Of a stretch of DNA of 64,000 nt, positions 6,479 through 36,624 are shown one piece after another; position 1 is the first letter of the stretch; each line of letters begins with the position of its first letter. Origin of the DNA: Alphaproteobacteria bacterium (lineage in GTDB: Bacteria; Pseudomonadota; Alphaproteobacteria; Rs-D84); the NCBI GenBank assembly GCA_017466525.1, contig JAFTTY010000038.1, positions 468 through 64,467 on the forward strand. The letters run 5' to 3'. The translations under genes were made by a program, and so were the position numbers. Under the pieces are notes generated by a model. That model had not been told where the DNA came from. It saw only the letters and a program-made list of their open reading frames with translations, and made no database searches.

Positions 6479-6482
6479 TTTC

Positions 6483-7292: not shown

Positions 7293-7298
7293 TTACGA

Positions 7299-7697
7299 TT
7301 ACTCTGGTTGTGTACGCAGTCCAACTTTTTGAAAACCAACATCTTTTAATTTACCCATCATAGACATAACCGCACCATAATCAGCATGGGTATCACCACT
7401 AATCATAATCGTCAGGTTTGGATTTTCACCACGCATTGCAATTGCACGCTTTACAACCTCGTCCCGGGGTAATTCCATTTCTGACAAGAAATAACGCCCA
7501 CGCGCATCAACGCTAATCTGAATTGCATGATCATTGCCCGTCATCGCAGATGCACCTGCACGTGGCAATTCCAAATCAATCCCCGTTGTCATCATTGGTG
7601 TTGTCACCATAAATACCGCCAACAACACCGTCATAACGTCAATCATTGGCGTTAACTGAATTCCAGAATCAGATTGTCTGCGACGCATACGTGACAT
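7299..7697 (-). CDS. tolR: TolR/ExbD family protein
   Basis: MSRMRRRQSDSGIQLTPMIDVMTVLLAVFMV is the ExbD/TolR signature. I use the internal ATG at 7697 because the track start at 7814 would overlap tolQ. Confidence 0.85.
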   Translation of the reverse strand: MSRMRRRQSDSGIQLTPMIDVMTVLLAVFMVTTPMMTTGIDLELPRAGASAMTGNDHAIQISVDARGRYFLSEMELPRDEVVKRAIAMRGENPNLTIMISGDTHADYGAVMSMMGKLKDVGFQKVGLRTQPE

Positions 7698-7707
7698 TAT
7701 AATATCC

Positions 7708-8199
7708 TTATTTTTTCGAATTAAATTCACGACGCACATCGTCCAGACGGTCGTATAAATCATCAGCCTTTTTCGCAAAAACCTGATGCGCAATCGCCGC
7801 AGGCACCGCCGCAATCAACCCCAACGCAGTTGTCCCCAACGCAACCGCCAGTCCTGGTGCAATAACGCCAATGCTAACCGACTGATTAATTCCAATCGAC
7901 GCGAAAGAATCCATAACGCCCCAAACTGTACCGAACAAACCAATAAACGGCGAAATATATGCGACCATCGCCAAGAACCACAAATTCTTGTCAAACGGAC
8001 GAACCAAGCGTTCCGGCGCAACCGCCATGTTATCAGACGCCTTTAATCTAACTGGATTTCTTTTGACCATTTTCCACAGACGGATTTTTTCAATAATAAC
8101 CGCCCATGACATAACACTAAATATCACCAAGACAATCGACACAAAGATTGTCATAATATCGCCTGTAAACAAACTTAACAGCGAAAAATTACTTTCCAT
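7708..8199 (-). CDS. tolQ: TolQ/ExbB/MotA family proton channel (short, 163 aa)
   Basis: Conserved C-terminal TM pair FIGLFGTVWGVM...GLAVALGTTALGLIAAVPA. Context is ybgC-tolQ-tolR-tolA. Confidence 0.85.
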   Translation of the reverse strand: MESNFSLLSLFTGDIMTIFVSIVLVIFSVMSWAVIIEKIRLWKMVKRNPVRLKASDNMAVAPERLVRPFDKNLWFLAMVAYISPFIGLFGTVWGVMDSFASIGINQSVSIGVIAPGLAVALGTTALGLIAAVPAAIAHQVFAKKADDLYDRLDDVRREFNSKK

Positions 8200-8226
8200 T
8201 TTTTCCTTCCTTTCTTTTGTTAATAA

Positions 8227-8601
8227 TTACACCAATTGCTCTATAAATTCCGCAGGAATACGTTTTGGACGCATATCCACACCCAAATACGCAACCTTTA
8301 AGTTTATTATAGCACAAACATTCCCATCTTTCACGAACTTTTGCTCAATTTTTACCGTTGCCACCCCAACATCTGTCATAACTGTTTTTACGACAAAATC
8401 ATCTGCCGCCTTTAATGGTTGTAAATACTTAATATTTAATTCACGAATAACAAATCCGATATCATCACCAACCACAACATGCCCACGCAACCAATTCATA
8501 CGTGCGCGTTCCGCAATTTCCAGATATCGCGCATGATACACAATTCCTTCGGCATCCGTGTCCGCATACGCAACTGTAAATGGATAAACATGTTCTTTCA
8601 T
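8227..8601 (-). CDS. ybgC: YbgC-like 4HBT acyl-CoA thioesterase (copy 1)
   Basis: FTVAYADTDAEGIVYHARYLEIAERARMNWLR hotdog-fold motif, directly upstream of tolQ. Confidence 0.8.
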   Translation of the reverse strand: MKEHVYPFTVAYADTDAEGIVYHARYLEIAERARMNWLRGHVVVGDDIGFVIRELNIKYLQPLKAADDFVVKTVMTDVGVATVKIEQKFVKDGNVCAIINLKVAYLGVDMRPKRIPAEFIEQLV

Positions 8602-8649
8602 TTACATCTATCTCTGCTTATCTGTAACACTCATCATTTCTTTACGCAA

Positions 8650-9003
8650 TTATTCGGGGATACTCTTTAAACGCAAATCCGGTCCAATATATGCGACACG
8701 ACTATTCATCGTTGCACAGATTTTATTTTCTGGATTCAAGAAATACTGTACCGTATCCAGGAACACATTGCCGACCTTTAACACTTCTGTTTCGACACAA
8801 ATATCTTCGCCCAACTTTAATGGAAAGCTATAATTTACGTTTAAATTTTTAATAATAAAATTATCGCCCCTTGGAATCTTTTTACCACGCATCCAGTTCA
8901 TACGTGCACGCTCTGCAATTTCAATATAGCGCCCATGATACACGATTCCCCCCGCATCAGTATCCGCATAGGCAATTGTAAAATTATACTTATGTCTTGC
9001 CAT
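8650..9003 (-). CDS. YbgC-like 4HBT acyl-CoA thioesterase (copy 2, tandem paralogue)
   Basis: FTIAYADTDAGGIVYHGRYIEIAERARMNWMRG is clearly paralogous to the neighbouring gene. Confidence 0.8.
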   Translation of the reverse strand: MARHKYNFTIAYADTDAGGIVYHGRYIEIAERARMNWMRGKKIPRGDNFIIKNLNVNYSFPLKLGEDICVETEVLKVGNVFLDTVQYFLNPENKICATMNSRVAYIGPDLRLKSIPE

Positions 9004-20331: not shown

Positions 20332-21138
20332 ATGACTACACAAAAATACAATCCAAAATACTGGCTATATGAACTAATCAAAAACCTGGCCCCGAAAACC
20401 CAGAGTTGTATTATCAAACATGGCGCACATCAATACAATTTAGACCGCAGAACCACCGCGTCCAATCAGCAACTAACACAAACCGAAGTTCATGACATAT
20501 TGGCATATCTGATACACATATACACAAAATATTATTTACCAGAACAACGAAAATCACCACACTGGCAAGACATAATTGACGAACAAAAATACAAACAAAT
20601 TCCACGCAGATACCATGGCATATATCGACCGCTGGGCGATGGGAAATACTGCATCAAGAAATCATTCTATAATGTATGCAAAACAAATTGGTGCCATACC
20701 CCAAATGCCAGCGTACTGGCAAACCCAGGTACAGACAAAAACAAATTAAAAAAATTGATAACACAACTACATCCATATACCAGTGTCTTTTATGAATACG
20801 ATTTCGAAAAAATACGCGAAATTCTAGTTCAATTAATTGATATGACACATGTACTGCATGTTCCAACCCCACAAACAGAATATGGCGCATTTGGCTGTAT
20901 AACAGTTATACCAAAAGACCCTACATATCATGAATATATCACGGAACAAGCAACACGAAACAGCAAACTACGCGCATTAAAAGAACTACAAGGCATACGC
21001 GACTCAAACGAACACTTAATTAGCCTTGAAGACGAACGACACAAACACAACAAAAAAATGCTGGCCAACGAATTTGAAAATAAAAAATCTAAATTTTTCA
21101 AAAAGGCACGCTCTCCTTTCTCAATAAAAACCCGTTAA
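20332..21138 (+). CDS. Hypothetical cytoplasmic protein (268 aa), no recognisable motif
   Basis: Good SD (AAGGA) before the ATG. Sits 12 nt upstream of thyA. No signal peptide. His/Tyr/Lys-rich. Confidence 0.5.
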   Translation: MTTQKYNPKYWLYELIKNLAPKTQSCIIKHGAHQYNLDRRTTASNQQLTQTEVHDILAYLIHIYTKYYLPEQRKSPHWQDIIDEQKYKQIPRRYHGIYRPLGDGKYCIKKSFYNVCKTNWCHTPNASVLANPGTDKNKLKKLITQLHPYTSVFYEYDFEKIREILVQLIDMTHVLHVPTPQTEYGAFGCITVIPKDPTYHEYITEQATRNSKLRALKELQGIRDSNEHLISLEDERHKHNKKMLANEFENKKSKFFKKARSPFSIKTR

Positions 21139-21150
21139 AAAGGATATAAA

Positions 21151-22119
21151 ATGAAAGCATATTTAGACATACTGGGCGACATTTATAAAAACAGAACAGA
21201 CATTCGCAACAACCGCACCGGCATTCATGACATCGGAATTGGTCACGGTGCAACATTTGTTCACGACATGGACATGGGTTTCCCACTGATTACGACCAAA
21301 AAAATGGGACTAAAAAATATCGCAACAGAATTAGAATTTTTCCTATACGGAATAACCGACAAAAAATGGCTGACCGACCGCAACTGCAAAATCTGGAACG
21401 AATGGGCAAATCCAATCAAAGTCGAACAAGAATACAACACGCGAATGGACGCGCTAAAACACCTTAACATAACACCACCCGACAAGAGCAAACAAATAGT
21501 CCGCAATTCTATCATGGACAAAGAGCGCGACCTGGGGCCAATCTATGGATTCCAATGGCGTCATTTTGGCGGCGAATATCAGTGGGACCAAAATCGCATA
21601 GAACGCGACCCGACCGACAACTTTAACCCACAAAAACCAGGCATCGACCAAGTCGCAAACGCAATTGATAAAATAAAGAACAACCCAAACGACCGTCGCA
21701 TTATTGTATCTGCATGGAATCCGGTTGATTTTCCACAAATGGCATTGCCACCATGCCATGTCATGCACCAATTAATCGTGCGCGACGGCAAACTAAATCT
21801 AATCTGGACCCAACGTTCATGCGACATGTTCTTAGGGATTCCTTATAATATTGCCAGTTACGCATTATTATTACTGCTTTACGCAAAAGAGGCAGGTTTA
21901 AAGCCCGGCATTCTAAAAGGCGAATTACACGACGCACACATTTACACAAACCATCTGCCCCAGGTTGCAACACAATTGCAACGCAAACCACATCCATTGC
22001 CAACCGTTGAAATACCTGATGAAAATTGGCACGGCATGTTAAAGTGGCATGCAAATGATGGTTTTAAATTAAAAGACTATGTCTGTCATGAACGCCTGCG
22101 TGGCGACGTCGCCCGATAA
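21151..22119 (+). CDS. thyA: Thymidylate synthase (long form with internal insertion)
   Basis: RTGIHDIG..., LGPIYGFQWRHFG, DRRIIVSAWNP, ALPPCHVMHQL (catalytic Cys) and SCDMFLGIPYNIASYALL. Confidence 0.95.
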   Translation: MKAYLDILGDIYKNRTDIRNNRTGIHDIGIGHGATFVHDMDMGFPLITTKKMGLKNIATELEFFLYGITDKKWLTDRNCKIWNEWANPIKVEQEYNTRMDALKHLNITPPDKSKQIVRNSIMDKERDLGPIYGFQWRHFGGEYQWDQNRIERDPTDNFNPQKPGIDQVANAIDKIKNNPNDRRIIVSAWNPVDFPQMALPPCHVMHQLIVRDGKLNLIWTQRSCDMFLGIPYNIASYALLLLLYAKEAGLKPGILKGELHDAHIYTNHLPQVATQLQRKPHPLPTVEIPDENWHGMLKWHANDGFKLKDYVCHERLRGDVAR

Positions 22120-22120
22120 A

Positions 22121-22147
22121 CAAATCCCCCATTCGGGGGATTTTTTA
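22121..22147. terminator. Bidirectional terminator (thyA / 22145 gene)
   Basis: ATCCCCC-attc-GGGGGAT followed by TTTTTT. It overlaps the TAA of the minus-strand gene. Confidence 0.8.
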
Positions 22148-24382
22148 TTTCATCGGTTCAAAACATTCACCTGTACTTTCTGCACAACACAGCCCATCCA
22201 TGAAATTTTCACCTGCACAGCAACCATTCATATCTGGCGCATTTCCGTCGGAACACATCTGTTGTTCTTCTTCAAGGATTTCCGCTGCACCAACAATCGC
22301 TGGCTCAGAATATTCCACAACTGGCGCATCTACATCAACTTCCTCTTCGACAACTTCTTCTGCATCTGTTTCATATTCTTCATCGGCGACAAACATTTTT
22401 TCCTGTTGTGAAACATTATAAACCGGTTTTACCGCAATTATATCCGCCACAGATTTAGTCTCAGCCGGCGCAACAACCTCATCTGACAAAAATGGGGAAT
22501 CTGTTGCTGTCTCTTCCTCTGCCACGACGGATTCTTCAATATCCTTTTCTGGTTCCGGCGCAACCTGCACAGCAACCGGTTCAATATCTGGAAATACTGC
22601 TGCGTCAATATCAATATCGTTAATTTCTACGTCTGCGAGCTCCTCAACAACAGGTGTAACATCCACTTCTTCTGTTTCCTCTACAACTGGTTCAACAGCA
22701 ACTGCTTCCTGTACTTCTGTTTCTTTTTCAGTACTATCATCATCAACGACCGTTAAATCAATAAATGGTGATGGCACATCTGTTTTTTCTTCTGCAACAG
22801 CTTCTGCTTCTTTTTCATCCGCTTTGTCTGCATCCGCTGTCACATCTTCTGACTTTTCTTCAGCAACAGCAACCTGGACATCTAATACAGGCATCGCCGT
22901 ATCCGGAGCAGACTTCTGATAGAACCACAGCGTAAACACAGACAATACAATTAATATTATCAGCAAAATATAATATAACATCGTGGGCTTACGACGAACA
23001 GCCGTCACAGGCGACGTTGCGCCCGTAATTGGCGATACGGGCCGCGTTTCAGGCGCAGTTGGCGCTTCTTCTATTTCTGGCATCGGCGTCGGCACAGATT
23101 CTTCAACAATCTCTTGAACAGTGGGCTCTGCATACTCTGCTACTGGTGCAACCGGCACAACCGGTTCTGTCTCAACAGGCTTTTCTTCTGTCACTTCATA
23201 CGACGATTGTGACGAAACATCTGGGACATCAGAAAAACCAGGTATATCAATTGTCGCCATCAGTTCAGAATCAATCTGTTCTGCCGGCACAGTTGTCAAA
23301 GAATCCAACACAGGTGCTGGTTCCGCCGCTGGGGCAGGGGCAGGCACTTCCTCTTTCGCCACATCAACAGGTGGTACAAATGACAATGGCTGCACCATTT
23401 CTGTTTTCTCTTCTGCCACAACCGGCGCAACCTGCGTTTCCTTATTCGCATTAAAATCAATCGGCTTAAACGCAATATTCTCATCCAAGATTTCTGGATC
23501 TTCATCAAACAAGGGTTTTACTTCTTCGTCGGCCATATCTTCCGCCTTTGTTTCTGTTGTTAAATCTGTAAATTCTGGAACCACATTCATAGGCACTGGT
23601 GCAGGTTCAGTTACCGCAACATCTGTTGACGCAGGCATCGCAGGCAATGCCACAACCTGGTCATCATTTACATCTGCATCACCCAACAACGCATCCAAAA
23701 TTCCGCGTGCAACATCTGCATCATCTTCTGCTGCGATTAATCTGCGTTGCGCACTGGCCAAGCGTTTTTTTGCACGCGCCATCTTTTCATTAACCGCATC
23801 AATCTGTGCCTCTGTTCGTAATATTTTTGATGCCGACTGCTTAGTTGGCTCTTTCCCAATATCTTTACGTTGGGCAGACAACTTTGTACGCAGATTTTTT
23901 AAACGTTCTTGCAGTTCTTTGATCGTTTCTTTGGTCTTTTCGATTGTTTCACGCGCATTCTTCGCCATCACATCTGCAGCACCCAAGCGCTCAAACGCAG
24001 CATTACGCGATGCCATATTTCGAAACGCCTGTAATTTTTCGGTTGCGCCATCAACGCCATCTCCCGCAACATACGCGCGTATCAAAGCATCATAAACACC
24101 CAATCCAGAATATTCGATATCCAGTTTTTGATACTTGTTATCTTTCTTTGGGCGCACATCCTCTAAATCAACACCATAGTCGTTTGTTAAGATATCATCC
24201 CACTTACGAATTCCCACAGGATTAATCACCAACAATACATTTGGCTTTGTCGCACTAACCGCGAAATCCAAAACGAACACCAATTTATCATCTGCGTCAT
24301 AATAGGCACGCAAATAGTTGCCCGAAATATCATAATCGACAAATTTCAAAGAACCGTTAAAGTTTTCTCTCTCGTTCGACAT
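22145..24382 (-). CDS. Acidic bitopic membrane protein: N-terminal globular plus coiled-coil region, one TM, Glu/Val/Pro/Ala-rich regions, Cys-rich C-terminus
   Basis: Uninterrupted ~745-codon ORF starting 22 nt after the gcrA stop (ATG 24382; the track uses TTG 24397). TM helix MLYYILLIILIVLSVFTLWFY. Last 37 aa contain 7 Cys (CSDGNAPDMNGCCAGENFMDGLCCAESTGEC). Confidence 0.65.
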   Translation of the reverse strand: MSNERENFNGSLKFVDYDISGNYLRAYYDADDKLVFVLDFAVSATKPNVLLVINPVGIRKWDDILTNDYGVDLEDVRPKKDNKYQKLDIEYSGLGVYDALIRAYVAGDGVDGATEKLQAFRNMASRNAAFERLGAADVMAKNARETIEKTKETIKELQERLKNLRTKLSAQRKDIGKEPTKQSASKILRTEAQIDAVNEKMARAKKRLASAQRRLIAAEDDADVARGILDALLGDADVNDDQVVALPAMPASTDVAVTEPAPVPMNVVPEFTDLTTETKAEDMADEEVKPLFDEDPEILDENIAFKPIDFNANKETQVAPVVAEEKTEMVQPLSFVPPVDVAKEEVPAPAPAAEPAPVLDSLTTVPAEQIDSELMATIDIPGFSDVPDVSSQSSYEVTEEKPVETEPVVPVAPVAEYAEPTVQEIVEESVPTPMPEIEEAPTAPETRPVSPITGATSPVTAVRRKPTMLYYILLIILIVLSVFTLWFYQKSAPDTAMPVLDVQVAVAEEKSEDVTADADKADEKEAEAVAEEKTDVPSPFIDLTVVDDDSTEKETEVQEAVAVEPVVEETEEVDVTPVVEELADVEINDIDIDAAVFPDIEPVAVQVAPEPEKDIEESVVAEEETATDSPFLSDEVVAPAETKSVADIIAVKPVYNVSQQEKMFVADEEYETDAEEVVEEEVDVDAPVVEYSEPAIVGAAEILEEEQQMCSDGNAPDMNGCCAGENFMDGLCCAESTGECFEPMK

Positions 24383-24404
24383 ACGTGTATTCCCCAATTA
24401 AATC

Positions 24405-25022
24405 CTATTTCTTTTTTGGTGGTGCAAACTGATACGCCTGTTTACAGTGTTCGTAACAATACGGTTTTCCAACAAAAACAGTTTCACCACAAAAATGAAA
24501 ATGTTCAGAATCAGGATCACCAATCGGCCAACGGCACTGATTTGGTTTTAAATTCGCCATTTCCAAAGAATGTTGAATAATTCGCTGATGCATCGCCAAA
24601 TTTTTGGCACTGGTCTTAGCAGACGACGTTTTTGTCGCAGCATCTTTGACAGGCTTTACAACATCTACTTTAACTTTTTTTGCGGACGCCTTTGATGTTA
24701 CATCCTTTTTTGCGACCGTCGTCTTTTTTGTCGCCGGCTTTTTTGCTGCATCCACGACCTTTGTTACAACCTTTTTTGTTGCGGTCTTTTTTACAGCAAC
24801 CCCTTTTATCGCCTTTTTTGCGGCTGTCTTTTTTTCTTTTACTGGTTCCGCCTTTACCGCAGCAGCACCACCAGCTTTGGCATTCCAACCCAAACGATTC
24901 AGTTTGCCAACAATCGCATTCTTAGACATACCCAAACGCTTACCAATTTCGGCGGTCGACAACCCTTTGCCAGTCAAGGCCTTCAATTTTTTTAAGGCAA
25001 TACTATCCCAACCCTTGCTCAT
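24405..25022 (-). CDS. gcrA: Cell-cycle regulator GcrA
   Basis: N-terminus WDSIALKKLKALTGKGLSTAEIGKRLGMSKNAIVGKLNRLG and C-terminus CRWPIGDPDSEHFHFCGE...PYCYEHCKQAY are the GcrA signatures. The Lys/Ala-rich linker is variable. Confidence 0.9.
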   Translation of the reverse strand: MSKGWDSIALKKLKALTGKGLSTAEIGKRLGMSKNAIVGKLNRLGWNAKAGGAAAVKAEPVKEKKTAAKKAIKGVAVKKTATKKVVTKVVDAAKKPATKKTTVAKKDVTSKASAKKVKVDVVKPVKDAATKTSSAKTSAKNLAMHQRIIQHSLEMANLKPNQCRWPIGDPDSEHFHFCGETVFVGKPYCYEHCKQAYQFAPPKKK

Positions 25023-25093
25023 TTTACAAAACCCTTGTTATACATTATGATATTAGTGTAGCATATATCCGATTCGAAAGGCAAGGGGGAAAA

Positions 25094-25564
25094 ATGTTTT
25101 TGCAAATATTTTTCATTTTTTTTATTTTGACAGCAATTTGGCTTAGCATCAAAATTTCTATCGCAGATTTCAAACGGCGCATAATTCCAGACGCCTATCT
25201 ATTTCCGCTGATGCTGATTGGATTAATATTGATTTCTTTTTATCATTTTCCAACCAATATTCAAGATGCGGTCATTGGTGCAACAGCCGGCTATTTATTG
25301 GCAACCTGTGTCGGCTGCGCGTTTGACTACTATATGCGAAAACACGGGGACAATATAACACCCCCAATTGGAATGGGCGACATAAAACTGATTGGCGTTG
25401 GCGGATTATGGCTAGGCGCAACTGGATTAGCCTATGCATTAATCATTGCCTGCATAACCGGCGCAATTTGGGCACGCATACGCCACCAAAAATACATACC
25501 TTTTGCACCGTTCTTTCTGTTGGGTGGATTTTTGTCTTTGATTGCAAACCACATTTTGCTATAA
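25094..25564 (+). CDS. A24-family prepilin peptidase homologue (CpaA/TadV-size, no methyltransferase domain)
   Basis: Polytopic, 156 aa. First Asp motif is IADFKRRIIPD and second is GMGDIKLIGVGG. Confidence 0.82.
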   Translation: MFLQIFFIFFILTAIWLSIKISIADFKRRIIPDAYLFPLMLIGLILISFYHFPTNIQDAVIGATAGYLLATCVGCAFDYYMRKHGDNITPPIGMGDIKLIGVGGLWLGATGLAYALIIACITGAIWARIRHQKYIPFAPFFLLGGFLSLIANHILL

Positions 25565-25589
25565 TACTTGTAATTAGAGGGGAACAGGA

Positions 25590-26465
25590 ATGAGAATTAA
25601 ATTACCTATATTCTTTGCAATATCTGCACTAACATTGACATACGCACACGCAAACACCCCAGCCCCATTTTCGCAATATGGGATGATTCAAAACGTGCAA
25701 AACTATTCGACTAATCCATATTGGGATCCAAACGGCCCATATAATCAGCGTTTGCCACAACCAATATATGTCCAAGGCGTACAAATCGAAACTGCCGAAT
25801 GTCAACAGGTCGTTGCCGGTTTGGTCGCGACACAATGCGCGATGCGTAATAACTGTCGTGATTCACGTATCAGTGACATCAGACCCGCAATAATGCTGCA
25901 ACTATCACAAATCCCAAATGGAAATTATGCAACGGCATGCAGTGGTTATATTGATTCTGCATTTGACAACTATGTCCAACAATACGGCTATGCAATGCCA
26001 ACAGGTGTTGTTTCATACCCAGCCCCCATTGTTGAAGAACCTGCACCACAAATTGAAATACAAAATCCATACGTCCCAATTGTTCCAGACTGGGCAACAG
26101 AAATGATGGAGCGCAAACAAGAACTGCTGGATTTACAGGCAATAAATGGCGCAAATAAAATTGAATTAAAAAAAACCGAATACCCAAAAGTATATGCTGA
26201 TCTGTCTTTTTCAGACCGCATGGAAAACGCGGCTGTTGGATATGAACCATACAAAGATAAAAAGGCATACGTTCCAATTACTATCGAAGACGAAGCATCA
26301 TATCTGGAACGCAAACAAAAATTGGCAGAGTTGCGCAAACAGAAATATTGTTTAGACCAGAAAAAAAAATATGACGAAATGGCATCTGCATTAAATGCGA
26401 TAAAAAAATGTCGCGAATCAAAAACCCCAAAGTCTAAATGCAGTGGGATCGAAAAATATTTATGA
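25590..26465 (+). CDS. Secreted hypothetical protein P1 (291 aa)
   Basis: Sec signal MRIKLPIFFAISALTLTYAHA with SD AGAGGGGA. The C-terminal ~58-aa module is shared with P4. Confidence 0.6.
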   Translation: MRIKLPIFFAISALTLTYAHANTPAPFSQYGMIQNVQNYSTNPYWDPNGPYNQRLPQPIYVQGVQIETAECQQVVAGLVATQCAMRNNCRDSRISDIRPAIMLQLSQIPNGNYATACSGYIDSAFDNYVQQYGYAMPTGVVSYPAPIVEEPAPQIEIQNPYVPIVPDWATEMMERKQELLDLQAINGANKIELKKTEYPKVYADLSFSDRMENAAVGYEPYKDKKAYVPITIEDEASYLERKQKLAELRKQKYCLDQKKKYDEMASALNAIKKCRESKTPKSKCSGIEKYL

Positions 26466-27901
26466 GAACATCAACTGTATCTTTTTTCACACTATTAGCA
26501 TTTGGTGTTTTTACCAACACCGAAATTTTTGCACTAAATTGGAACGACCCAGGGGTGAATCCTGTAATGTCCATCAGTGACCGGGCTTGGCGCGACGCAA
26601 ACACAGGAAGAAGAATTAGCATAAAAGACATGCCTAAAGACGGTCCACCCGTCGCAGGCACAAGCACGGGCACGAGCACGGGCAAGACTACTGGAACATC
26701 GTCCAGCACCACAAAAGCAAAACCCATCGCAAAAAATGACCCCAAACCGACAACAACCACCACCAGTACAACAGGAAAATCCGGCAAATTAAATGCTGCC
26801 AAGGGTGTGTTAGGCAAGGCCGCGGGGGTTGCAGGTGGCGCACTTGGTGCATATGGTGTTTATGAAAACACCGCAGGTTCACACGAACATTCCGCCGGCA
26901 ATGTTGTTGGTGGAACACTGTCTGGTATGGTAGCCGGCGCATCCATCGGCAGCATCATCCCCGCTGTTGGCACAGGTGTCGGCGCGGCTGTTGGTGCGGC
27001 TGTTGGCGGCGTAATCAGCGGATCTCAATTATTCTCTGAAACAGACTGTTTACAAGATCCGATTACAAAAAAATTTACATGTTGTAACACGCAATTTAAT
27101 TCCGGCGAACGCCAGGTTCCAATTGGCGGCTATATGTTCTGCGAAAAAAACAATGCAAATGGCACACCATTCCCAGGGGTCCGCCAATGTCTGCAAGAGG
27201 GCAGCGCCACCGAAACATCATGGTGGTCGGGCGGCGCATTCAAAGACGACCATTGGTCCGCAGAATGTTCCTATAAATGGTGTGACACCACTCCAACAAC
27301 CGAACAATTGGGAAATCCTGGCATAAAATTTGAACCAGACACAACTAACTTTTGTTATAAGTGGAGCATCGATACATCATCTACAACCACAACAACCGAT
27401 ACAAGCACCTCAACCAGCACAACCGGCACGACTGGCACCACAGGCGCAACAGGCACCACAGCCGGAACCGCAGCCGGAACCACACCTAGCACACCAGTAT
27501 CAGAACCAATAAACGACGAATACACAAACCTGGTTAATCGTATTGAACAAGAAATGACTGAACTGGAACAACAATGCGAAATATTCAATAAAAATCGCGA
27601 ATCAATAAACTATACATCTGGTGGCAGTACAACAACAGCTAATGCTCAAAACACAATAGGCACAATTGTCGCACAACCAACAACCACACAGCCAATGATT
27701 ATGGCGGTACCCGGTGCACAAGTTATGCAAATTGCGCAACCCACAACCGCTGCCCAGACCGGCACAGCCAACGCAACTAACACAACTGCCCAAACAGATT
27801 CAACCACCCAGACCGGCACAACTAACAATACACAACTAGCCGCGACCAGCACTACAAATCCCCCCAGTACAACAACAACGGCCACAACAACAACCAAATA
27901 A
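26462..27901 (+). CDS. Secreted Thr-rich protein P2 with a glycine-zipper segment and a Cys/Trp-rich central domain
   Basis: ATG 26462 overlaps the P1 stop (ATGA). Signal MRTSTVSFFTLLAFGVFTNTEIFA. Glycine zipper GGTLSGMVAGASIGSIIPAVGTGVGAAVGAAVGGVISGS (Rick_17kDa_Anti-like by recollection). Poly-Thr/Ser/Gly tracts are present. Confidence 0.6.
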   Translation: MRTSTVSFFTLLAFGVFTNTEIFALNWNDPGVNPVMSISDRAWRDANTGRRISIKDMPKDGPPVAGTSTGTSTGKTTGTSSSTTKAKPIAKNDPKPTTTTTSTTGKSGKLNAAKGVLGKAAGVAGGALGAYGVYENTAGSHEHSAGNVVGGTLSGMVAGASIGSIIPAVGTGVGAAVGAAVGGVISGSQLFSETDCLQDPITKKFTCCNTQFNSGERQVPIGGYMFCEKNNANGTPFPGVRQCLQEGSATETSWWSGGAFKDDHWSAECSYKWCDTTPTTEQLGNPGIKFEPDTTNFCYKWSIDTSSTTTTTDTSTSTSTTGTTGTTGATGTTAGTAAGTTPSTPVSEPINDEYTNLVNRIEQEMTELEQQCEIFNKNRESINYTSGGSTTTANAQNTIGTIVAQPTTTQPMIMAVPGAQVMQIAQPTTAAQTGTANATNTTAQTDSTTQTGTTNNTQLAATSTTNPPSTTTTATTTTK

Positions 27902-27908
27902 TAATACC

Positions 27909-29720
27909 ATGCATTTCATAATTCGCTTTTTTTTGTCTTTATTTGCCGTATCAACTGCATTTGCAAATGCTGATAATTATGGCTTGCCAAGTGCCACAAC
28001 AACACAAACAGAAAAACCGTCACTGGTCGCGGATGGCACAACACCCGCTGGATACGAAGACGCAATGACCGTCGACGAAATATTAATCACACCACCCGCA
28101 AAAACAGAATGCGCGACCAAGGCATTTGCAGACGCCTTGGCACAGAACGCCGGCAAAATCAAAGAATCCGAACACGAGACCGCTGTTCAAATGTGGATTC
28201 AACAAACTTTTGCGGACAAAGACACTTTAACCAAGGTTTTGGCATGCCCAGAAATTGCCGGTGCTGCAGAAGATGAAACAATTAAATTTATACCTATACA
28301 ATACAAATTTCCTGGCGGTCGCGAAATTATCGTAAATTACGAAACACAACCCAAGGTATTAAAACAACGTCTAACATTAGCAACAAAACGAGGATTGCCA
28401 TCTGACGATCCCAACCCACGTATTGGCAGCGCTGATGATACCGCCATTTGGACCAATACGGATCCTGCGTGGTATGCCATTATGGTAACCGAACACGGTG
28501 CATTAAATGAATTCGTTGGCCCAGACAAGAACAATACCATCGCCATTAATTATATCAAAGATCACATCGATGATTTTTATCCAAATGCATTACTAAACGG
28601 TGGCACATGTACCAGCCGCAGCGCGCTTTCTAGCGATGAAGACATGATTAATAAAACCGTCACAAAAACCGTCAACATGAAAGAAACTACCGGCGAAGAC
28701 GACACAAACGATTACTATGTTGCCGGCGATATAAACCTGCAATGGATTTCATATTTAGAAATCGCATTGGATGTAGTTATCACAATTGTCACATTTGGCG
28801 GTGGCACGGTCATATCTGGCATGGCCAAAGCCGCACGTGCATCAAGGGCATTAAAAGGAATGAAGACGACATTAAACACCCTAAAAGCATCTGACAAAGT
28901 TATCGATTTTGTAAAAACAACTCAACGGATTGATAAATTAACCGATGAAATCAAAATGTTGGACAAGGTAACAGACGCTGCAAAAATCGCCGAAAAAACC
29001 AAAGAACTAGATAAATTAAATGATGCCCGAAAAACATTAGACAAAGCAGACGATGTAAAAAAATACAAAGAAACCATGGACACATATAAAAAACTAAATG
29101 CATATCGCCGTAATTTACGTTTACTGCGCCCAGCACAACGTGGCAACATCATGGCACGTGCCGTAAAAGCAACAAAATCCGCATGGTCGGGAAACCGTTT
29201 AATTAAGCAAGGTGCAAAACTGGGACGTAACGGCAAATTTTCTGGCCGCGTTCGCGATTTCTTATTCAATTCAACAATGCGGAACGCCAGTCGTTTGGGC
29301 AAAATGTCTGCTGCAGGTGGCGTACTATACACCGCACTAAAATTTGCAGGCGACATGTATGACTGGACAGAAACCAGTACCGGTGAATTTACCAGTGGCG
29401 TCGAATTTGCACCATTATTATTACTGTCAGCGGACGATTTACAAGGTCAAGAAAACGTCGTCAATCACGGAATGTGGCTGATGTGGGCAGGCGATTCTTT
29501 AAGTGCTGCCGACGACGACGCCGCATATTTACAGGCCATGGATTTTGCATCCAAATTCCACGAAGACTTAATGGAAATGCAATCTGACACCAGCAGTCCA
29601 TGCAATGTTGACATCTTCGTTGTTCGCCCGATATTACGCGATCCTGGTTCCGATACCGCCGCGCTATATTATTTAGTTATGACAGATCAACCATGGACAA
29701 CCGCAGAAACTACAAAATAA
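27909..29720 (+). CDS. Secreted/membrane hypothetical protein P3 (603 aa)
   Basis: Signal MHFIIRFFLSLFAVSTAFA. Hydrophobic segment WISYLEIALDVVITIVTFGGGTVISGMA followed by a Lys-rich coiled-coil-like region. No known motif. Confidence 0.6.
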   Translation: MHFIIRFFLSLFAVSTAFANADNYGLPSATTTQTEKPSLVADGTTPAGYEDAMTVDEILITPPAKTECATKAFADALAQNAGKIKESEHETAVQMWIQQTFADKDTLTKVLACPEIAGAAEDETIKFIPIQYKFPGGREIIVNYETQPKVLKQRLTLATKRGLPSDDPNPRIGSADDTAIWTNTDPAWYAIMVTEHGALNEFVGPDKNNTIAINYIKDHIDDFYPNALLNGGTCTSRSALSSDEDMINKTVTKTVNMKETTGEDDTNDYYVAGDINLQWISYLEIALDVVITIVTFGGGTVISGMAKAARASRALKGMKTTLNTLKASDKVIDFVKTTQRIDKLTDEIKMLDKVTDAAKIAEKTKELDKLNDARKTLDKADDVKKYKETMDTYKKLNAYRRNLRLLRPAQRGNIMARAVKATKSAWSGNRLIKQGAKLGRNGKFSGRVRDFLFNSTMRNASRLGKMSAAGGVLYTALKFAGDMYDWTETSTGEFTSGVEFAPLLLLSADDLQGQENVVNHGMWLMWAGDSLSAADDDAAYLQAMDFASKFHEDLMEMQSDTSSPCNVDIFVVRPILRDPGSDTAALYYLVMTDQPWTTAETTK

Positions 29721-29724
29721 ACAA

Positions 29725-30867
29725 ATGCGTATTTGGAAATATATCTTTACAGCTTCAATAATAATTCCACACAGCGCAAACGCGATTGTGGAACTAACAA
29801 AAGTATCATACCCAAAAACAATTGCTGATGTTCCACGTGAAGTGCGAATTGAAAATGAAAAAATAGGCTATGCACCATACGCTAACACATCTGCATACGT
29901 TCCAATTGAACTAGAATCAGAAGAAGAAGCCATGGAACGTCATATCGCGCGTCTAGAAGCAATTGCGAAATTGGACGCCATCAACATGTCTCACGACGAA
30001 TACTGTGAAAAATACCCCACAGACGAAGAAAAATGCGTACAAACACCTGGCCTCGAAGAACAAATAATTGCAATAGGTTCTGCCCCAATAATTCAGATTG
30101 CACAACCCGTTGTTCCTGGGGCACCTGCTGTACAAGGTGCCACAACACCCGCAGCACCCACTCCTTCTATGCCCGGAACACCAAACGCATCTGTTGCCCC
30201 TGCGGTCGCCACCAGTGGACAATTGGTCGGATACAGCATGTCTGGTCAACCAGTATATGCGAACCCCACAATTGTTGGTGGACCATGCACCCCACCAGAA
30301 ACAGACGACACCGGATGGCCAAATAAAATATACACCAGTGGCAAATATCAATCAATTGACCAAGGTTTTGAAAAAATCATGACAATCGTATTCCGCAAAG
30401 AGGGCGCATGTGGCAACGACCCAGATGATGCCGGCGGTTTTACATGTTTTGGCATATCATCCAGGGCAAACCCAGATATTGACGTTGCGAATTTAACACG
30501 CCCAAAGGTCGAAGATATAGCATATGACAGATATTATAAAAAATACAATATAGATAAATTACCTGACTCTATACGTGACGTCGTATTCTTAACAATGTGG
30601 GGGTCGGGACCAGCATATATTAAAAAATTCCAACGCTTTCTTGGCGTGCCTGCAACAGGAAAAATTGATGACACAACTATCAATGCCGCCAAAAATTACC
30701 AAGGCGATATCAGAGAGCGATACCTAGATAACCGTCAACAACAGCTAGTCGAAGCATCAAAAAAAGGCAACAATAGAAAATTCTTAAAGGGTTGGATGCG
30801 CGGCATAAAACTGTATCGAAAAAACGGTTGCCATTATCCAACACAAAAACCACTAAAACGCGAATAA
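29725..30867 (+). CDS. Secreted GH108-type N-acetylmuramidase with a PG_binding_3-like C-terminus and a novel N-terminal extension (P4)
   Basis: Signal MRIWKYIFTASIIIPHSANA. KEGACGNDPDDAGGFTCFGIS matches the GH108 EGGyvnDPxDxGGxTxyGI motif. The tail ...KFLKGWMRGIKLY resembles PG_binding_3. Confidence 0.72.
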   Translation: MRIWKYIFTASIIIPHSANAIVELTKVSYPKTIADVPREVRIENEKIGYAPYANTSAYVPIELESEEEAMERHIARLEAIAKLDAINMSHDEYCEKYPTDEEKCVQTPGLEEQIIAIGSAPIIQIAQPVVPGAPAVQGATTPAAPTPSMPGTPNASVAPAVATSGQLVGYSMSGQPVYANPTIVGGPCTPPETDDTGWPNKIYTSGKYQSIDQGFEKIMTIVFRKEGACGNDPDDAGGFTCFGISSRANPDIDVANLTRPKVEDIAYDRYYKKYNIDKLPDSIRDVVFLTMWGSGPAYIKKFQRFLGVPATGKIDDTTINAAKNYQGDIRERYLDNRQQQLVEASKKGNNRKFLKGWMRGIKLYRKNGCHYPTQKPLKRE

Positions 30868-30931
30868 TTATTCCTGTTGTGTTTCTTACGATATTTATTT
30901 ATAATATAAATATATAAACAAGGGAGCAATA

Positions 30932-31249
30932 ATGAAAAAAATCTTATCTGCATTGCTTATCGTTATCTCAGCAATTTATACCGCCAACGCGTATCAGGTT
31001 TTGTCGTCCAAAGAACTGGGCAAGAACGACGCCAAGAATCAAAATGTTGTTGTTAAATGCACAACTGATACTGGCAAATTATCAAATCAAACATGTTCAC
31101 TGCGCCGATACGCAAAATGCACCGGCAAAGGCGATAAAAAACGTTGCAACGGTTGGCAACCATGGCGCGATTTACGCAACCCAGGCCAACAATATTCAGA
31201 CTGGAAAGCGGCAGCATCCGCGTGCTGTCGTGCCAAGGGATTAAGATAA
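30932..31249 (+). CDS. Small secreted basic cysteine-rich protein P5 (105 aa)
   Basis: Signal MKKILSALLIVISAIYTANA with SD AAGGGAG. Mature part has 6 Cys and many Lys/Arg. Confidence 0.55.
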   Translation: MKKILSALLIVISAIYTANAYQVLSSKELGKNDAKNQNVVVKCTTDTGKLSNQTCSLRRYAKCTGKGDKKRCNGWQPWRDLRNPGQQYSDWKAAASACCRAKGLR

Positions 31250-31277
31250 TAAAAAACGCCATTTTGGCGTTTTTTTA
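31250..31277. terminator. Bidirectional terminator (P5 / lpxB)
   Basis: ACGCC-atttt-GGCGT followed by TTTTTTT, with an A-run upstream. Confidence 0.8.
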
Positions 31278-32411
31278 TTTACGTATACCATCTGCAATCA
31301 ACTTACCCGCACCATCATCAGATAATTGCCATAATTTATCCGCACTTTTTAAATCATTGATCATCTTTTCGCGTTTTGATGGGATTGTTAACTGTTGAAC
31401 TGCATCCAACACATTTGTTGCCGTCGCCGCAGGCCCCAAAAATTCAGGATACACACCACAATTTAATAAAATATTCACCAGCGACACCCAACGCACATTA
31501 ATCATTTGACGCACCAACCATGTTGTAATTGGATTCATCTTGTACACAACAATCGCCGGCACGTGCAACATCGCCAATTCAGCCGATACAGTACCACTGG
31601 CAACAATTGCAATATATGTTTTTGCATATATATCATAACGTTCAGATGCAGAAACTAATTCCGGCTTTACACGCCAACGTGACGTTTCTTGTTTTATGTA
31701 TTCAGCCGTTGTTTCCACCGTTGGAATAACAAAACGATACCCCATATACCCATTTCGCGACAGCATATCAATCACATCATGCATCAATGGCAACAAACGC
31801 TTAACCTCACTCATTCTGCTGCCTGGGACCAGGGTAATAATCTTTTCTGTCTGCTTTTTGCGCGATTTATACTTTCCAATTAAATTATCTGCAATCGGAT
31901 GCCCCACCGCCACCGTTTCCAAACCGTGTTTTGTGAAATAGGGCACCTCAAACTCAAAAAAAGCATACAATTTATCAAATATTCGCGCATACTTTTTTGC
32001 ACGTCCTGGACGCCATGCCCAAACCTGGGGTGCAACAACATGATGAAACTTTAATCCCCTGGCAATTAATTCGGAACCTGTCGGACTTTTTCTAATCTGC
32101 TTTATAACGCTTTTTGCAAAGCCAGGGGAATCAATTGTTAAAACAACATCTGGTCTTTCCGCAATAATCGCATCAACCGTTTGCTTTATTCGCTTGGTTA
32201 ACGTACGCGCATGTGCCAAAACCTCTATCGCGCCCATAACGGCCAAATCCCCCATCGGGAACAGAGACTTCAATCCACACTTTTGCATATTTTCGCCACC
32301 GACACCAACGAATTCGGCGTCCGTCATTTGCGCCATAATACGCGCACCCAAGACATCACCCGAAACCTCACCTGCAATGATAAAAACTTTAATTTTTTTA
32401 CTATTCTGCAT
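31275..32411 (-). CDS. lpxB: Lipid-A-disaccharide synthase
   Basis: KVFIIAGEVSGDVLGARIM N-terminus and overall LpxB similarity. ATG 32411 overlaps the lpxA end by 11 nt. Confidence 0.9.
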   Translation of the reverse strand: MQNSKKIKVFIIAGEVSGDVLGARIMAQMTDAEFVGVGGENMQKCGLKSLFPMGDLAVMGAIEVLAHARTLTKRIKQTVDAIIAERPDVVLTIDSPGFAKSVIKQIRKSPTGSELIARGLKFHHVVAPQVWAWRPGRAKKYARIFDKLYAFFEFEVPYFTKHGLETVAVGHPIADNLIGKYKSRKKQTEKIITLVPGSRMSEVKRLLPLMHDVIDMLSRNGYMGYRFVIPTVETTAEYIKQETSRWRVKPELVSASERYDIYAKTYIAIVASGTVSAELAMLHVPAIVVYKMNPITTWLVRQMINVRWVSLVNILLNCGVYPEFLGPAATATNVLDAVQQLTIPSKREKMINDLKSADKLWQLSDDGAGKLIADGIRK

Positions 32412-33201
32412 TTTTAGATGTACCGATTCCGCGCTTTGAACGATTTTCAATAAAATCAATCGCGTCCATGGCATATTTGTTATTCTTTACTTCCTTGCGA
32501 ACCTTGGCCAAGCGTTCTGACACCGTCCCTTCGCCACCATGGAACACCGCAGAATACACAGAATGTATGGCATGCATATCTTCGTTTGTAAATCCATGAC
32601 GCATCAAACCAACACGATTAATAGTGCGATATACGGCACGTGGACTGCCATCATAAATTGCATATGGCAATACATCATTACCAACCCCAGACATACCACC
32701 AATAAACGCATTGCGCCCAATACGTGCAAATTGCAAAACCATGGCGCCACCACTGATAATTGCGAAATCTTCAACCTCTACATGTCCTGCTAATTGTACC
32801 AAGTTAGACATAACAACACTATTGCCAACCTTGCAATCATGTGCAACGTGCGCATTAACCATAATCTGACAATCATCACCAATCACCGTACCATCAGACG
32901 CAGGTGTCCCAGAATGAATTGTTGCATATTCACGAATTTTACAGCGTTTACCAATACGCACACCTGTCATTGTGCTTTCATCTTGCCATTTTAAATCCTG
33001 ACTCATCACGCCGACAACGGCAAATGGATAAACAATAGAATCATCGCCAATAGATGTCTTGCCTTCAACCACGACATTTGCAACCAATTCTACACGATCG
33101 CCCAGAACGACATTCGGTCCCACAATACAAAAAGGTCCAATTTTACAATCCGCGCCCAATTTCGCGCCATCATGAATAATTGCAGTTGGATGTATAGCCA
33201 T
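32401..33201 (-). CDS. lpxA: Acyl-ACP--UDP-N-acetylglucosamine O-acyltransferase
   Basis: IHPTAIIHDGAKLGADCKIGPFCIVGP hexapeptide repeats plus the C-terminal helical domain. Confidence 0.93.
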   Translation of the reverse strand: MAIHPTAIIHDGAKLGADCKIGPFCIVGPNVVLGDRVELVANVVVEGKTSIGDDSIVYPFAVVGVMSQDLKWQDESTMTGVRIGKRCKIREYATIHSGTPASDGTVIGDDCQIMVNAHVAHDCKVGNSVVMSNLVQLAGHVEVEDFAIISGGAMVLQFARIGRNAFIGGMSGVGNDVLPYAIYDGSPRAVYRTINRVGLMRHGFTNEDMHAIHSVYSAVFHGGEGTVSERLAKVRKEVKNNKYAMDAIDFIENRSKRGIGTSKNAE

Positions 33202-34314: not shown

Positions 34315-34998
34315 ATGAGCACAAAACAAGAAATTTTTACCCTGATGGGTGGCCGCGTAAGAATACATCGTGGGCATTACAATCCGACATCTGACGCTGT
34401 ATGGTTGGCGGCCTTTGCGCCAAATAACGCAAGAACTGTACTGGATGTCGGAATTGGTACAGGCGGTGTATCTTTATGTTATCTGGCAAACAATCCAACT
34501 GCCGAAATAACAGGCATCGACACATCCGTTGATATGTTACATGAATGCGAACAAAACGCGATATTGAACGACGCATCGATTGAAACAATCGAACAAGACA
34601 TCAATACATGGCGAACCAATCGCACATTTGACTTGGTTTTGACCAATCCGCCATATTTTAATGGCACACCTGCGAAACATAACGCCCACCATAATGCAGA
34701 CCTGCGCACCTGGATTTCACGATGTATCGCACGCGTCCGCCCAATGGGAACATTTTGCATAATAACAGACGCCACAACCATTGCGCTGGTTATATCAGAA
34801 ATGTCACAAAAACTGGGCGACATAACGATATTTCCACTTTTTGGCGCAAAAAATACCGCAGAACGCGTTCTTATATCTGGCAAACTGGGCACCAAAGGCA
34901 TATCAATACTGCACCACGGATTACCAATGAATTACGAGCCTATTTTGCGCAACGGCTTGACTATTGCGGATACTTTGTCTACACTATCCCAGAAATGA
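34315..34998 (+). CDS. SAM-dependent N6-adenine methyltransferase (TrmN6/YfiC-like)
   Basis: VLDVGIGTGGVSL (motif I) and DLVLTNPPYF (NPPY motif IV). Confidence 0.72.
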   Translation: MSTKQEIFTLMGGRVRIHRGHYNPTSDAVWLAAFAPNNARTVLDVGIGTGGVSLCYLANNPTAEITGIDTSVDMLHECEQNAILNDASIETIEQDINTWRTNRTFDLVLTNPPYFNGTPAKHNAHHNADLRTWISRCIARVRPMGTFCIITDATTIALVISEMSQKLGDITIFPLFGAKNTAERVLISGKLGTKGISILHHGLPMNYEPILRNGLTIADTLSTLSQK

Positions 34999-36272
34999 TA
35001 AATTTTATAACACGATATTTTACGTCTTTATGGGCGTTCATAACATCACCATTCCGTGCCATTTGGCGCGTTATTGTGCGTATATTCCCACCACGTGAAT
35101 TTACCGTCATGGACACACCGCGTGGTAACGTATACACATTTAATCAAAGCAGCTTTTGGCGTTTTACCCGTTTCTGTGGCAAGATTGGATTAACCCTATG
35201 GGCGACATGGTCAACATACGTATTCGTATATCATCGTCCTTTATTACAAAAGCGTACACAGCAACTGGAAGAAGTACGCGCCACACACGCCCGCCATATG
35301 AGCGACCTGCAAACATATCTTGCAAAATATAACGATTTAACACGTGATTTAAATGTGACCGACGACAAAATATTGCGTGCCAAGGATTTAAGCGATTCTG
35401 AAAAAGAAAAATTGATGAACAGCCGCGTAAAAACATGGGGCGAACTGGACTTTTTGCGCACACGCATTGTCGAAATGTTACGCGACGAAGAATTTGAACC
35501 AGAATATACCAAACTATCTGAATTATCTGTGGAATATGAACTGACCCGCGCAGAAAACGAGGAATTAAAGCGTCGCAACATACAAATGGCTGAAACTATG
35601 GCGGCCGTCGCAGACGCCGACAACATAATCGTCGATGCAGTCGCCGCATTAACCAAAGAAAACACCGAAGAATTACACAAAAATATCAAGCGCGTCAACA
35701 GCACACTTGTTTCGCTTGGTTTAAACGAGTTGACATTGATTCGCAACGCAAACAAACACTCAAACCCATTGGTTGGTTCCGCATTCAGCCCAATTGAATT
35801 CGACAAAACACTGGACGCAAAATACCAAAAGTTGGCAGACGGCCTGGAACGGTGGAACGGATTGCGTCGTTTAAATCAGATGTTACCATTGGGAAAGCCT
35901 GTAAACGCGCGCATCACATCAAACTATGGCACGCGTAACGATCCATTCACAGGCAAACCAAAAAAACATCGCGGCATTGATTTTGCCGGCAAAATCGGCA
36001 CAGAATTGATGGCGGTCGCCCCTGGGCGCGTTGTATCTGCAGGCGAACGCGTTGGTTATGGCACAACAGTTGAAATTGATCACGGGCTGGGCTTTACAAC
36101 ATTATATGCCCACCTGTCACGCATAATGGTATCACGTGGCGATTGGGTCCGCCCCGGGACTGTAATCGGACTGGCGGGGTCATCTGGCCGTTCTACTGGA
36201 CCACACTTGCACTATGAAATCAGATACAAAGGTTCACCATTTGACCCAACAAAATTTGTAAAGGACGAATAA
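34995..36272 (+). CDS. Bitopic M23 (LytM) peptidase with cytoplasmic tail, TM and coiled coil (LmdC-like)
   Basis: ATG 34995 overlaps the preceding TGA. TM GKIGLTLWATWSTYVFVY. C-terminal HRGIDFAG...GTTVEIDHG...GSSGRSTGPHLHYEI. Confidence 0.85.
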   Translation: MINFITRYFTSLWAFITSPFRAIWRVIVRIFPPREFTVMDTPRGNVYTFNQSSFWRFTRFCGKIGLTLWATWSTYVFVYHRPLLQKRTQQLEEVRATHARHMSDLQTYLAKYNDLTRDLNVTDDKILRAKDLSDSEKEKLMNSRVKTWGELDFLRTRIVEMLRDEEFEPEYTKLSELSVEYELTRAENEELKRRNIQMAETMAAVADADNIIVDAVAALTKENTEELHKNIKRVNSTLVSLGLNELTLIRNANKHSNPLVGSAFSPIEFDKTLDAKYQKLADGLERWNGLRRLNQMLPLGKPVNARITSNYGTRNDPFTGKPKKHRGIDFAGKIGTELMAVAPGRVVSAGERVGYGTTVEIDHGLGFTTLYAHLSRIMVSRGDWVRPGTVIGLAGSSGRSTGPHLHYEIRYKGSPFDPTKFVKDE

Positions 36273-36273
36273 A

Positions 36274-36624
36274 ATGCTGGCATTTACAAACTCTACGGAA
36301 AAACAATCCCCAACCGTCATCGGCGCGGGGTGCAAAGTATCAGGCGATATAAAAACAGACCACACTGTCCAAATCCATGGCGAAGTTGTTGGTAATATTA
36401 CCGCAGACACAGTTGTTATTGGTCGTGGTGGCCGCGTCATAGGCGAAGTAAAAACACCCGTATTATTCCTGCACGGCTGTTTAGAAGGGCCTGCAACGGT
36501 TAACACCGCAAATGTTTTCAGCGCGGCACAAATGACAGGCACATTGTCATATCACACGCTGAACATCACTGGCAACACCGGTCTGGAATGTAAATTACAA
36601 AAAAGAAAGGACAAGGAAAAATGA
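36274..36624 (+). CDS. Bactofilin
   Basis: Beta-helical repeats VIGAGCKVSGDIKTDHTVQIHGEVVGNITADTVVIGRGGRVIGEV. Starts 1 nt after the M23 gene stop. Confidence 0.8.
   Translation: MLAFTNSTEKQSPTVIGAGCKVSGDIKTDHTVQIHGEVVGNITADTVVIGRGGRVIGEVKTPVLFLHGCLEGPATVNTANVFSAAQMTGTLSYHTLNITGNTGLECKLQKRKDKEK

Follow-up and report, generated by a model that had tools for sequence, protein, structure and literature searches.

Here we describe a cluster of six genes, G1 and P1 to P5, from Candidatus Enterousia, an alphaproteobacterium of the order Rs-D84. It lies within a stretch of 64,000 nucleotides (nt) of contig JAFTTY010000038.1 (assembly GCA_017466525.1), called the window in the following. We tentatively interpret the cluster as a cell-envelope module that is specific to the lineage of Candidatus Enterousia and the order Rs-D84, a reading that we place slightly short of probable. 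Judging from their sequences, the protease G1 and the muramidase P4 are new members of known families, and the complete assembly corresponds to none of the named systems. A literature search found no description of this cluster. The bacteria of Rs-D84 and Enterousia are uncultured, widespread inhabitants of the gut and possess about 900 genes; Enterousia has been assigned to this order, its genomes are smaller than about 1 Mb, it has no flagella, no respiration and almost no standard transporters, and its lifestyle is probably partner-dependent (PMC12306168). The relative at locus L086 has a circular chromosome of 958,618 bp. The block to which the cluster belongs (eight genes here, seven where the muramidase is missing) is very likely central to the biology of these bacteria, since all species sampled have retained it in genomes as small as these.

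Relatives of P3 were found in 250 species-representative genomes, of which 80 were listed. The titles of these 80 name Candidatus Enterousia, uncultured Alphaproteobacteria, Proteobacteria or Rickettsiales, and the sources given in them are animal guts or faeces. A survey with tblastn yielded 88 loci, nine of which belong to this genome or duplicate two relatives, and revealed a block that is retained in approximately 70 to 80 species-level genomes. It consists of big750 and gcrA and, divergently oriented, G1, P1, a gene at a variable position (the slot, occupied by P2 in the window), P3, in some species P4, and P5. The genes outside this block vary between species. The gene gcrA is adjacent to and divergent from the cluster at 80 of the 88 loci, big750 adjoins gcrA at 79, and G1 comes first in the cluster at every locus with enough upstream flank. 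This recurrence of gene order is far beyond chance.

The preliminary description of this DNA, made from the window alone, had proposed an operon of six genes whose components fit no named system. The lack of a named counterpart was borne out; the unknown proteins belong to families restricted to this lineage, and in relatives throughout Rs-D84 the genes are adjacent and in the same sequence. A fixed composition of six genes was not confirmed: only a third of the species (25 of 75) have P4 between P3 and P5, and in the other 50 P5 comes directly after P3, P2 is one of at least four slot families, and P5 has a promoter of its own. The nearest relative (L010) contains no trace of P4, and a second close relative (L011) retains its last ~100 nt. 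The median identity to the window proteins was highest for P5 (78%), followed by lpxB (74%), gcrA (66%), G1 (59%), P3 (58%), P1 (47%), big750 (45%), P4 (43%) and P2 (42%). The DNA identity to L010 and L011 over positions 22000-32600 is mosaic, with 73-79% to the left of and within the cluster and ~92% from the end of P4 onwards, in P5 and lpxB, which suggests recent recombination on the right-hand side.

Fusions found in nature join P1 to the slot protein or to the muramidase, and P3 to the muramidase, so that all four are connected. P1 is composed of an N-terminal domain with four Cys residues, a docking module of 40 amino acids (aa 191-230) and a variable C-terminal tail, and the alignment of its orthologues contains invariant Cys residues and motifs. 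The docking module recurs in P4, in which aa 22-61 are 50% identical to it over the 40 aa (E value 9e-10). In several species, long forms of P4 carry a complete P1, followed by a linker and the GH108 domain. P1 is fused to a slot protein of type D or type A in about ten species, and fusions of P3 with GH108 were found in two proteins (P0109 and P0152).

Clustering of the slot proteins resulted in the families A (P2-like, 35 proteins), B (13), C (12) and D (9) and two singletons. Even among the closest relatives the slot has been replaced gene-sized: the window has a protein of type A, L010 of type B and L011 of type C. The DNA similarity between the window and these two loci ends at the P1 stop codon (26468) and resumes 29 nt (L010) or 111 nt (L011) into P3, with a gene-sized gap at 26469-27937. 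Type D (P3´) is a clear paralogue of P3, with ~25-30% identity and an E value of ~1e-30. The same origin was considered for types B and C and was not established, the hhalign probabilities being 0.6-5% and 4-40%, respectively.

The tail of P1 covaries with the slot family. Next to a slot of type A, a tail with three Cys residues is present at every readable locus (31 by motif and the window by eye). Type B is accompanied by the tail FCKKYP...ALKDAKK at many loci, type C by a hydrophobic end, GEILFIL, at some loci, and type D by the end IVLSYWI or by a fusion. Exceptions are the recently swapped loci L010 and L011. Taken together, the shared module, the fusions and the covariation of tail and slot make P1 look like an adaptor with a conserved docking part, which the muramidase uses as well, and an exchangeable part that probably binds cargo. 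The slot protein of the window, P2, contains 20% Thr and a glycine-zipper region. In the alignment of P2-type proteins, a signal peptide precedes a hypervariable linker rich in Thr, Pro and Gly, after which come a hydrophobic region with a glycine zipper and a Cys/Trp core, both of them conserved; the window protein has a unique extra tail rich in Thr and Gln. Composition and alignment thus agree with the Thr tracts, glycine zipper and Cys/Trp core that had been reported for P2 at first. P1, P2, P3 and P5 gave no match in Pfam, NCBIfam, PADLOC or the PDB sequences and no meaningful match among the PHROGs, and P1 to P3 accordingly belong to no well-characterised family in these collections.

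P3 is the conserved membrane protein of the cluster, and its family comprises 140 clusters among 1.84 billion representative proteins. A signal peptide and an N-terminal part are followed by a transmembrane segment (280-303), a helical hairpin that is rich in Lys and varies in length, a weakly hydrophobic segment (466-484) and a conserved C-terminal part. Hydropathy gives one strongly hydrophobic segment ahead of the Lys-rich helical region, in line with the hydrophobic hairpin and Lys-rich region described originally. In P3 and P3´, C68, C234 and C565 are invariant and C113 nearly so. Since these four conserved Cys residues span both globular parts, both would be located in the periplasm, and P3 would consequently form a membrane hairpin with its Lys-rich helical region of variable length in the cytoplasm. 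In two relatives (P0055 and P0087), the helical region (~aa 330-400 of the window protein) is lengthened by tandem duplication of a unit of ~20-40 aa (KLTDEIK.LDKV.DAAKIA), which acts like a spacer of variable length.

An AlphaFold2 model of P3, built on an alignment of 101 sequences including the P3´ paralogues, reached a mean predicted local distance difference test (pLDDT) score of 72.8, and the globular parts (~65-275 and 495-600) scored mostly in the high 80s to mid 90s. It replaced a model from 18 sequences, which had a pLDDT of 55 and gave meaningless Foldseek output. A Foldseek search with the new model resulted in no match at E <= 0.001 in the PDB or BFVD. A likeness to generic helical hairpins such as ESCRT-III and Vipp1/PspA (E ~0.1) was treated as not significant. 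According to this model, P3 has a fold without detectable relatives.

The muramidase P4 consists of a signal peptide, the P1-type docking module, a linker and a GH108 domain with a PG_binding_3-like domain. The match to GH108 (PF05838) has an E value of 1.4e-14 and 54.8 bits, far above the cut-off of 21.2, which is in line with the lysozyme first assigned to P4. The match to PG_binding_3 stays just below its threshold (22.4 bits vs 24.6), so that the PG_binding_3-like tail is a putative one. The motif FRKEGACGNDPDDAGGFTCFGIS, with the catalytic Glu of the EG(G/A) type, aligns to 2IS5 and 2IKB. The relatives of P4 among the PDB sequences are 2IKB, 7DNP and 6V3Z/6V40 (Sen1395/PG_binding_3 chains), and the alignment to PDB sequences spans residues 215-361. 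P5, an exported, basic protein (isoelectric point (pI) 9.9) with six Cys residues, is the best conserved of the cluster. Among 30 representatives, 41 positions are invariant and 23 nearly so, and the 535 homologues of P5 all belong to this lineage. Nearly all of 77 species have a promoter pattern in front of P5 that consists of ATTCCYRTTGT, ~17 nt and a perfect TATAAT, independent of whether the preceding gene is P3 or P4; in the window this pattern is nearly unique.

G1 matches the Pfam family Peptidase_A24 (PF01478) with an E value of 9e-18 and 65 bits (cut-off 26.5) over positions 3-103 of the 104 in the profile. Both catalytic Asp motifs noted at the outset, IADFKRRIIPD and GMGDIKL, are present. 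D25 and the Asp of GMGD are retained in at least 95% of 68 orthologues, and the catalytic residues are under purifying selection. Five hydrophobic segments of 19 residues suggest a polytopic membrane protein. Pfam reported no N-terminal methyltransferase/DiS_P_DiS domain; together with the length of 156 aa this places G1 in the short size class of TadV/CpaA. A sequence or profile search of the PDB with G1 gave no match. PGAP labels G1 as "A24 family peptidase" or "prepilin peptidase" and the other products of the cluster as "hypothetical protein".

The region shared by gcrA and G1 is conserved almost base for base, and its length is 70-80 bp in nearly all species. A promoter scan identified the promoter-like sequence TTTACA-17-TATGAT (25023-25051, 10 of 12 matches) in front of G1, and the spacer contains the ribosome-binding site of G1, AAGGGGG. 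The gcrA promoter on the minus strand probably overlaps the G1 promoter within these 71 bp. A palindromic element in the spacer, CGAWTCG, has a GANTC core (GATTC at 25071-25075). In 59 of 64 species, a GANTC whose central base varies precedes the start codon of G1 by 23-25 nt. Elsewhere in the Alphaproteobacteria, GcrA acts through GANTC sites that are methylated by CcrM, and by analogy a coupling of the cluster to the cell cycle is plausible. In the window GANTC is under-represented, with 155 sites vs ~230 expected from base composition.

From these data the following arrangement of the proposed envelope module can be envisaged. P3 would be anchored in the inner membrane, with its new-fold domain directed to the periplasm and its basic helical hairpin to the cytoplasm. 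P1 would be a periplasmic adaptor that binds the conserved core with its docking module and holds, with its variable tail or by direct fusion, an interchangeable and probably exposed slot protein, here P2 with its glycine zipper, Cys-rich core and mucin-like linker, so that these proteins may form a physical complex. P4, bearing the P1 docking module, might be an optional cargo that opens the peptidoglycan locally. P5, probably abundant and made from its own promoter, could be a conserved stoichiometric or structural partner that is small, basic and disulfide-rich. G1, a GxGD protease of the A24 type, may mature or regulate a membrane-embedded component other than a classical pilin. Transcription would start in the 71-bp region shared with gcrA, and expression may be tied to the cell cycle by GANTC. 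As a role, we suggest an envelope or surface structure that serves the partner-dependent lifestyle.

It might also be possible, although we regard this as speculative, that an A24 protease has been co-opted from pilus biogenesis for a non-pilin complex of four families found solely in Rs-D84, forming a new envelope organelle for attaching to or feeding on a partner. G1 could, for instance, cut proteins of the P3 family at the conserved K-x5-G471/V472, on the side of the second hydrophobic segment that faces the cytoplasm. In this family an invariant Gly471 is preceded by a basic stretch and followed by a hydrophobic segment, the same orientation as in sequences cut by A24 enzymes, so that this region is a candidate G1 site, though only a lead. 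Another candidate, the sequence [KR]..AAGG followed by a hydrophobic stretch, was rejected as a shared cleavage site: it is present in 10 of 35 slot proteins of type A, 1 of 13 of type B and 5 of 12 of type C, vs 11% of background open reading frames (ORFs). If the module is an attachment or uptake apparatus, it offers a handle on how these organisms interact with their hosts, and the substrate range of A24 proteases would extend beyond pilins. Even if it turns out to be part of housekeeping wall remodelling, P3 would represent a new fold and the P1 docking module a new way to tether a wall hydrolase.

Several points weigh against the envelope module as drawn here. The second membrane segment of P3 is weakly hydrophobic, which makes the topology of the protein uncertain. 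Having its own promoter, P5 is tied to the cluster by position only. P1 to P5 have ordinary Sec signals with sites of the AxA type and, as stated in the preliminary description, none of them has a class III leader with Gly at -1; hence there is no demonstrated G1 substrate among them. The AAGG motif is not conserved across the slot families. In the window and the related sequence examined, no ccrM gene was found. Finally, the window represents ~7% of a genome of ~0.9 Mb, and a pilus locus might be present elsewhere.

The last point and the missing leaders would also fit another explanation, namely that G1 serves as a normal prepilin peptidase of a Tad or type IV system whose pilin substrates and assembly genes are located elsewhere in the genome, that its position reflects shared regulation or history and that P1 to P5 are envelope proteins unrelated to it. 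G1 has all the A24 hallmarks and the size of TadV/CpaA. As in Tad/Flp loci, a short A24 enzyme with both motifs, five hydrophobic segments and no methyltransferase stands first in an envelope cluster; unlike there, no Flp/pilin, TadA/CpaF ATPase, TadB/C platform or secretin was found here, and the neighbours use Sec leaders. However, wherever the flank is long enough, the peptidase gene occupies exactly the same position, even though its surroundings have been rearranged, and in the related loci surveyed its orthologue never adjoins pilus genes. Scans for pilin/Flp leaders and for the secretion ATPase signature (Walker A and GE[IMVL]RD) detected none in the window and none in 1.54 Mb of related loci. 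Among the Pfam matches of the window proteins there is no T2SSE ATPase, pilin/Flp, platform or secretin, and the 64 kb are therefore free of pilus genes in these searches, as had been claimed. In addition, type IV pili have been reported solely for another lineage and not for Rs-D84 (PMC12306168). We consider this explanation unlikely.

Rather unlikely, in our view, is that the cluster is a cell-cycle-controlled module for peptidoglycan remodelling or morphogenesis, acting in division, polar growth or tethering, in which P3 and P1 position or regulate hydrolases such as P4. This would agree with the divergent gcrA and the conserved, overlapping control region with GANTC, with a muramidase that is tethered by the P1 module or fused to P3, with the membrane anchor and cytoplasmic helical hairpin of P3, and with the cell-shape genes nearby (a bactofilin gene with an M23 peptidase gene, and rodZ). 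Dedicated wall hydrolases are also known from envelope-spanning machines, examples being VirB1, EtgA and FlgJ. Like these, P4 is a wall hydrolase tied to a membrane complex, here by the shared module or the P3 fusion, but it belongs to a different muramidase family and its partner is no known secretion system or flagellum. On the other hand, the muramidase is absent in two thirds of the species, and a hypervariable slot protein that is swapped as a cassette and has mucin-like linkers would be unusual for a housekeeping wall machine. A replacement of the Tol system was rejected since the window has ybgC, tolQ and tolR at another place, so that a remodelling module would not be a substitute for Tol.

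The gene-sized replacement of the slot could likewise indicate a system for competition or attack, with a membrane-active slot protein and the muramidase as delivered toxins and P5 or P1 providing immunity or delivery. The hydrophobic glycine-zipper segments and the optional exported muramidase would be compatible with this, and polymorphic toxin and adhesin loci also have one position that is replaced by unrelated families while an adaptor tail changes in step. Here, unlike in such loci, no recognisable toxin, immunity or delivery domains are present, and the conserved partners belong to families without known relatives. P5, the most conserved protein, and the N-terminal part of P1 do not change along with the slot, unlike immunity proteins. 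No secretion machine for delivery was found, and neither PADLOC nor the search for toxin domains gave a match. Such a function is thus improbable.

An origin as degenerate prophage lysis cassette or other phage-derived element is very improbable: P4 does match phage endolysin families (phrog_315 with an E value of 3e-30, an NCBIfam holin-associated muramidase with 7.5e-10) and the Gly-rich stretch of P2 matches tail lysin and tape-measure PHROGs, but the latter matches are restricted to the low-complexity Gly region, the cluster core persists without P4, no holin and no phage gene was found by Pfam and PHROGs in the flanks, which consist of core genes, P3 has no match in 50,697 phage records or BFVD, and the base composition equals that of the surroundings at a position among core genes that is fixed across the order. 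The GH108 proteins of the TtsA type, which act in holin-muramidase "type 10" secretion (typhoid toxin of Salmonella Typhi), resemble P4 in combining GH108 with a PG_binding_3-like domain, putative in P4, beside exported proteins; we take the 6V3Z/6V40 chains to be linked to TtsA. P4 differs from them in its Sec signal and P1-derived docking module, in lacking a holin or spanin and in being dispensable in most species. Anti-phage defence was rejected since the PADLOC output consisted only of coiled-coil noise, and a genomic island since the composition is uniform across the region.

The features of the locus are compiled in Table 1; the start of P2 was taken as the ATG that overlaps the P1 stop codon. 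The ORF list confirmed the six co-oriented genes with the junctions originally described, from G1 to P5 25 nt, an overlap of 4 nt (ATGA), 7 nt, 4 nt and 64 nt, and the boundaries, too, are those given before, with gcrA on the left and a bidirectional terminator on the right. Shine-Dalgarno sequences are strong for G1, P1 and P5 and not for P2, P3 and P4, which fits translational coupling of the latter three. The Sec-type signal peptides of P1 to P5 end in AHA, FA, AFA, ANA and ANA, respectively. Four metagenome contigs in the ENA contain identical copies of the locus.

Table 1. Genes and control elements of the cluster and its left-hand neighbours (window positions)
Feature	Position	Strand	Size	Remarks
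G1, A24 peptidase	25094-25564	+	156 aa	
P1, exported adaptor-like protein	25590-26465	+	291 aa	
P2, variable-slot occupant type A	26462-27901	+	479 aa	
P3, conserved core membrane protein	27909-29720	+	603 aa	
P4, accessory exported GH108 muramidase	29725-30867	+	380 aa	
P5, small basic exported protein	30932-31249	+	105 aa	
big750, acidic protein	22145-24397	-	745-750 aa	ORF; start codon uncertain
gcrA, cell-cycle regulator	24405-25022	-		Pfam GcrA, E value 2.6e-27; divergent from cluster
Shared gcrA/G1 control region	25023-25093		71 bp	Promoter scan and cross-species conservation
P5 promoter TTGTGT-17-TATAAT	30877-30905	+		Conserved upstream element
Bidirectional intrinsic terminator	31251-31275		11-pair stem	Hairpin AAAAACGCCATTTTGGCGTTTTT; common to convergent lpxB

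The gene for the acidic protein big750 (pI 4.1) follows gcrA on the minus strand after 7 nt. The N-terminal domain of the protein is conserved and includes a coiled coil; towards the C terminus it is followed by a single transmembrane segment (aa 474-492), a linker of acidic character and a knob rich in Cys, with the motif C.DG..PD..GCCAGE...CC...CF.P. No Pfam match was obtained for the protein and no PDB match for its N-terminal domain. The layout loosely recalls polar scaffold proteins, to which no homology was found.

The rest of the window contains housekeeping genes (rplM, rpsI, tig, thyA, lpxA/B, leuS, prfA, hisS, dxs, uvrA, rodZ, ruvB, ybgC-tolQ-tolR, argS and a two-component pair). The region 5324-9003 on the minus strand comprises two thioesterase (ybgC-like) genes, tolQ (7708-8199) and tolR (7299-7814; the listed ORF overlaps tolQ), followed by an unannotated protein of 269 aa (6483-7292), which could be a divergent TolA, and a DUF2817 protein. 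At 34722-36624 on the plus strand, an M23 peptidase gene has a bactofilin gene immediately 3´ of it, a pairing that is tied to cell-shape control in other Alphaproteobacteria. In a relative with a very small genome (L005/L006), a Cas9-type gene with HNH and RuvC (973 aa, 20670-21671) is located ~7.5 kb downstream of the cluster copy. A single open frame of at least 1751 aa on the minus strand (3-5255) is cut off by the left end of the window. The N terminus of its product resembles a signal peptide, Cys residues are numerous, the sole Pfam match is a sub-threshold Listeria-Bacteroides repeat, and the frame may encode a giant surface protein or adhesin.

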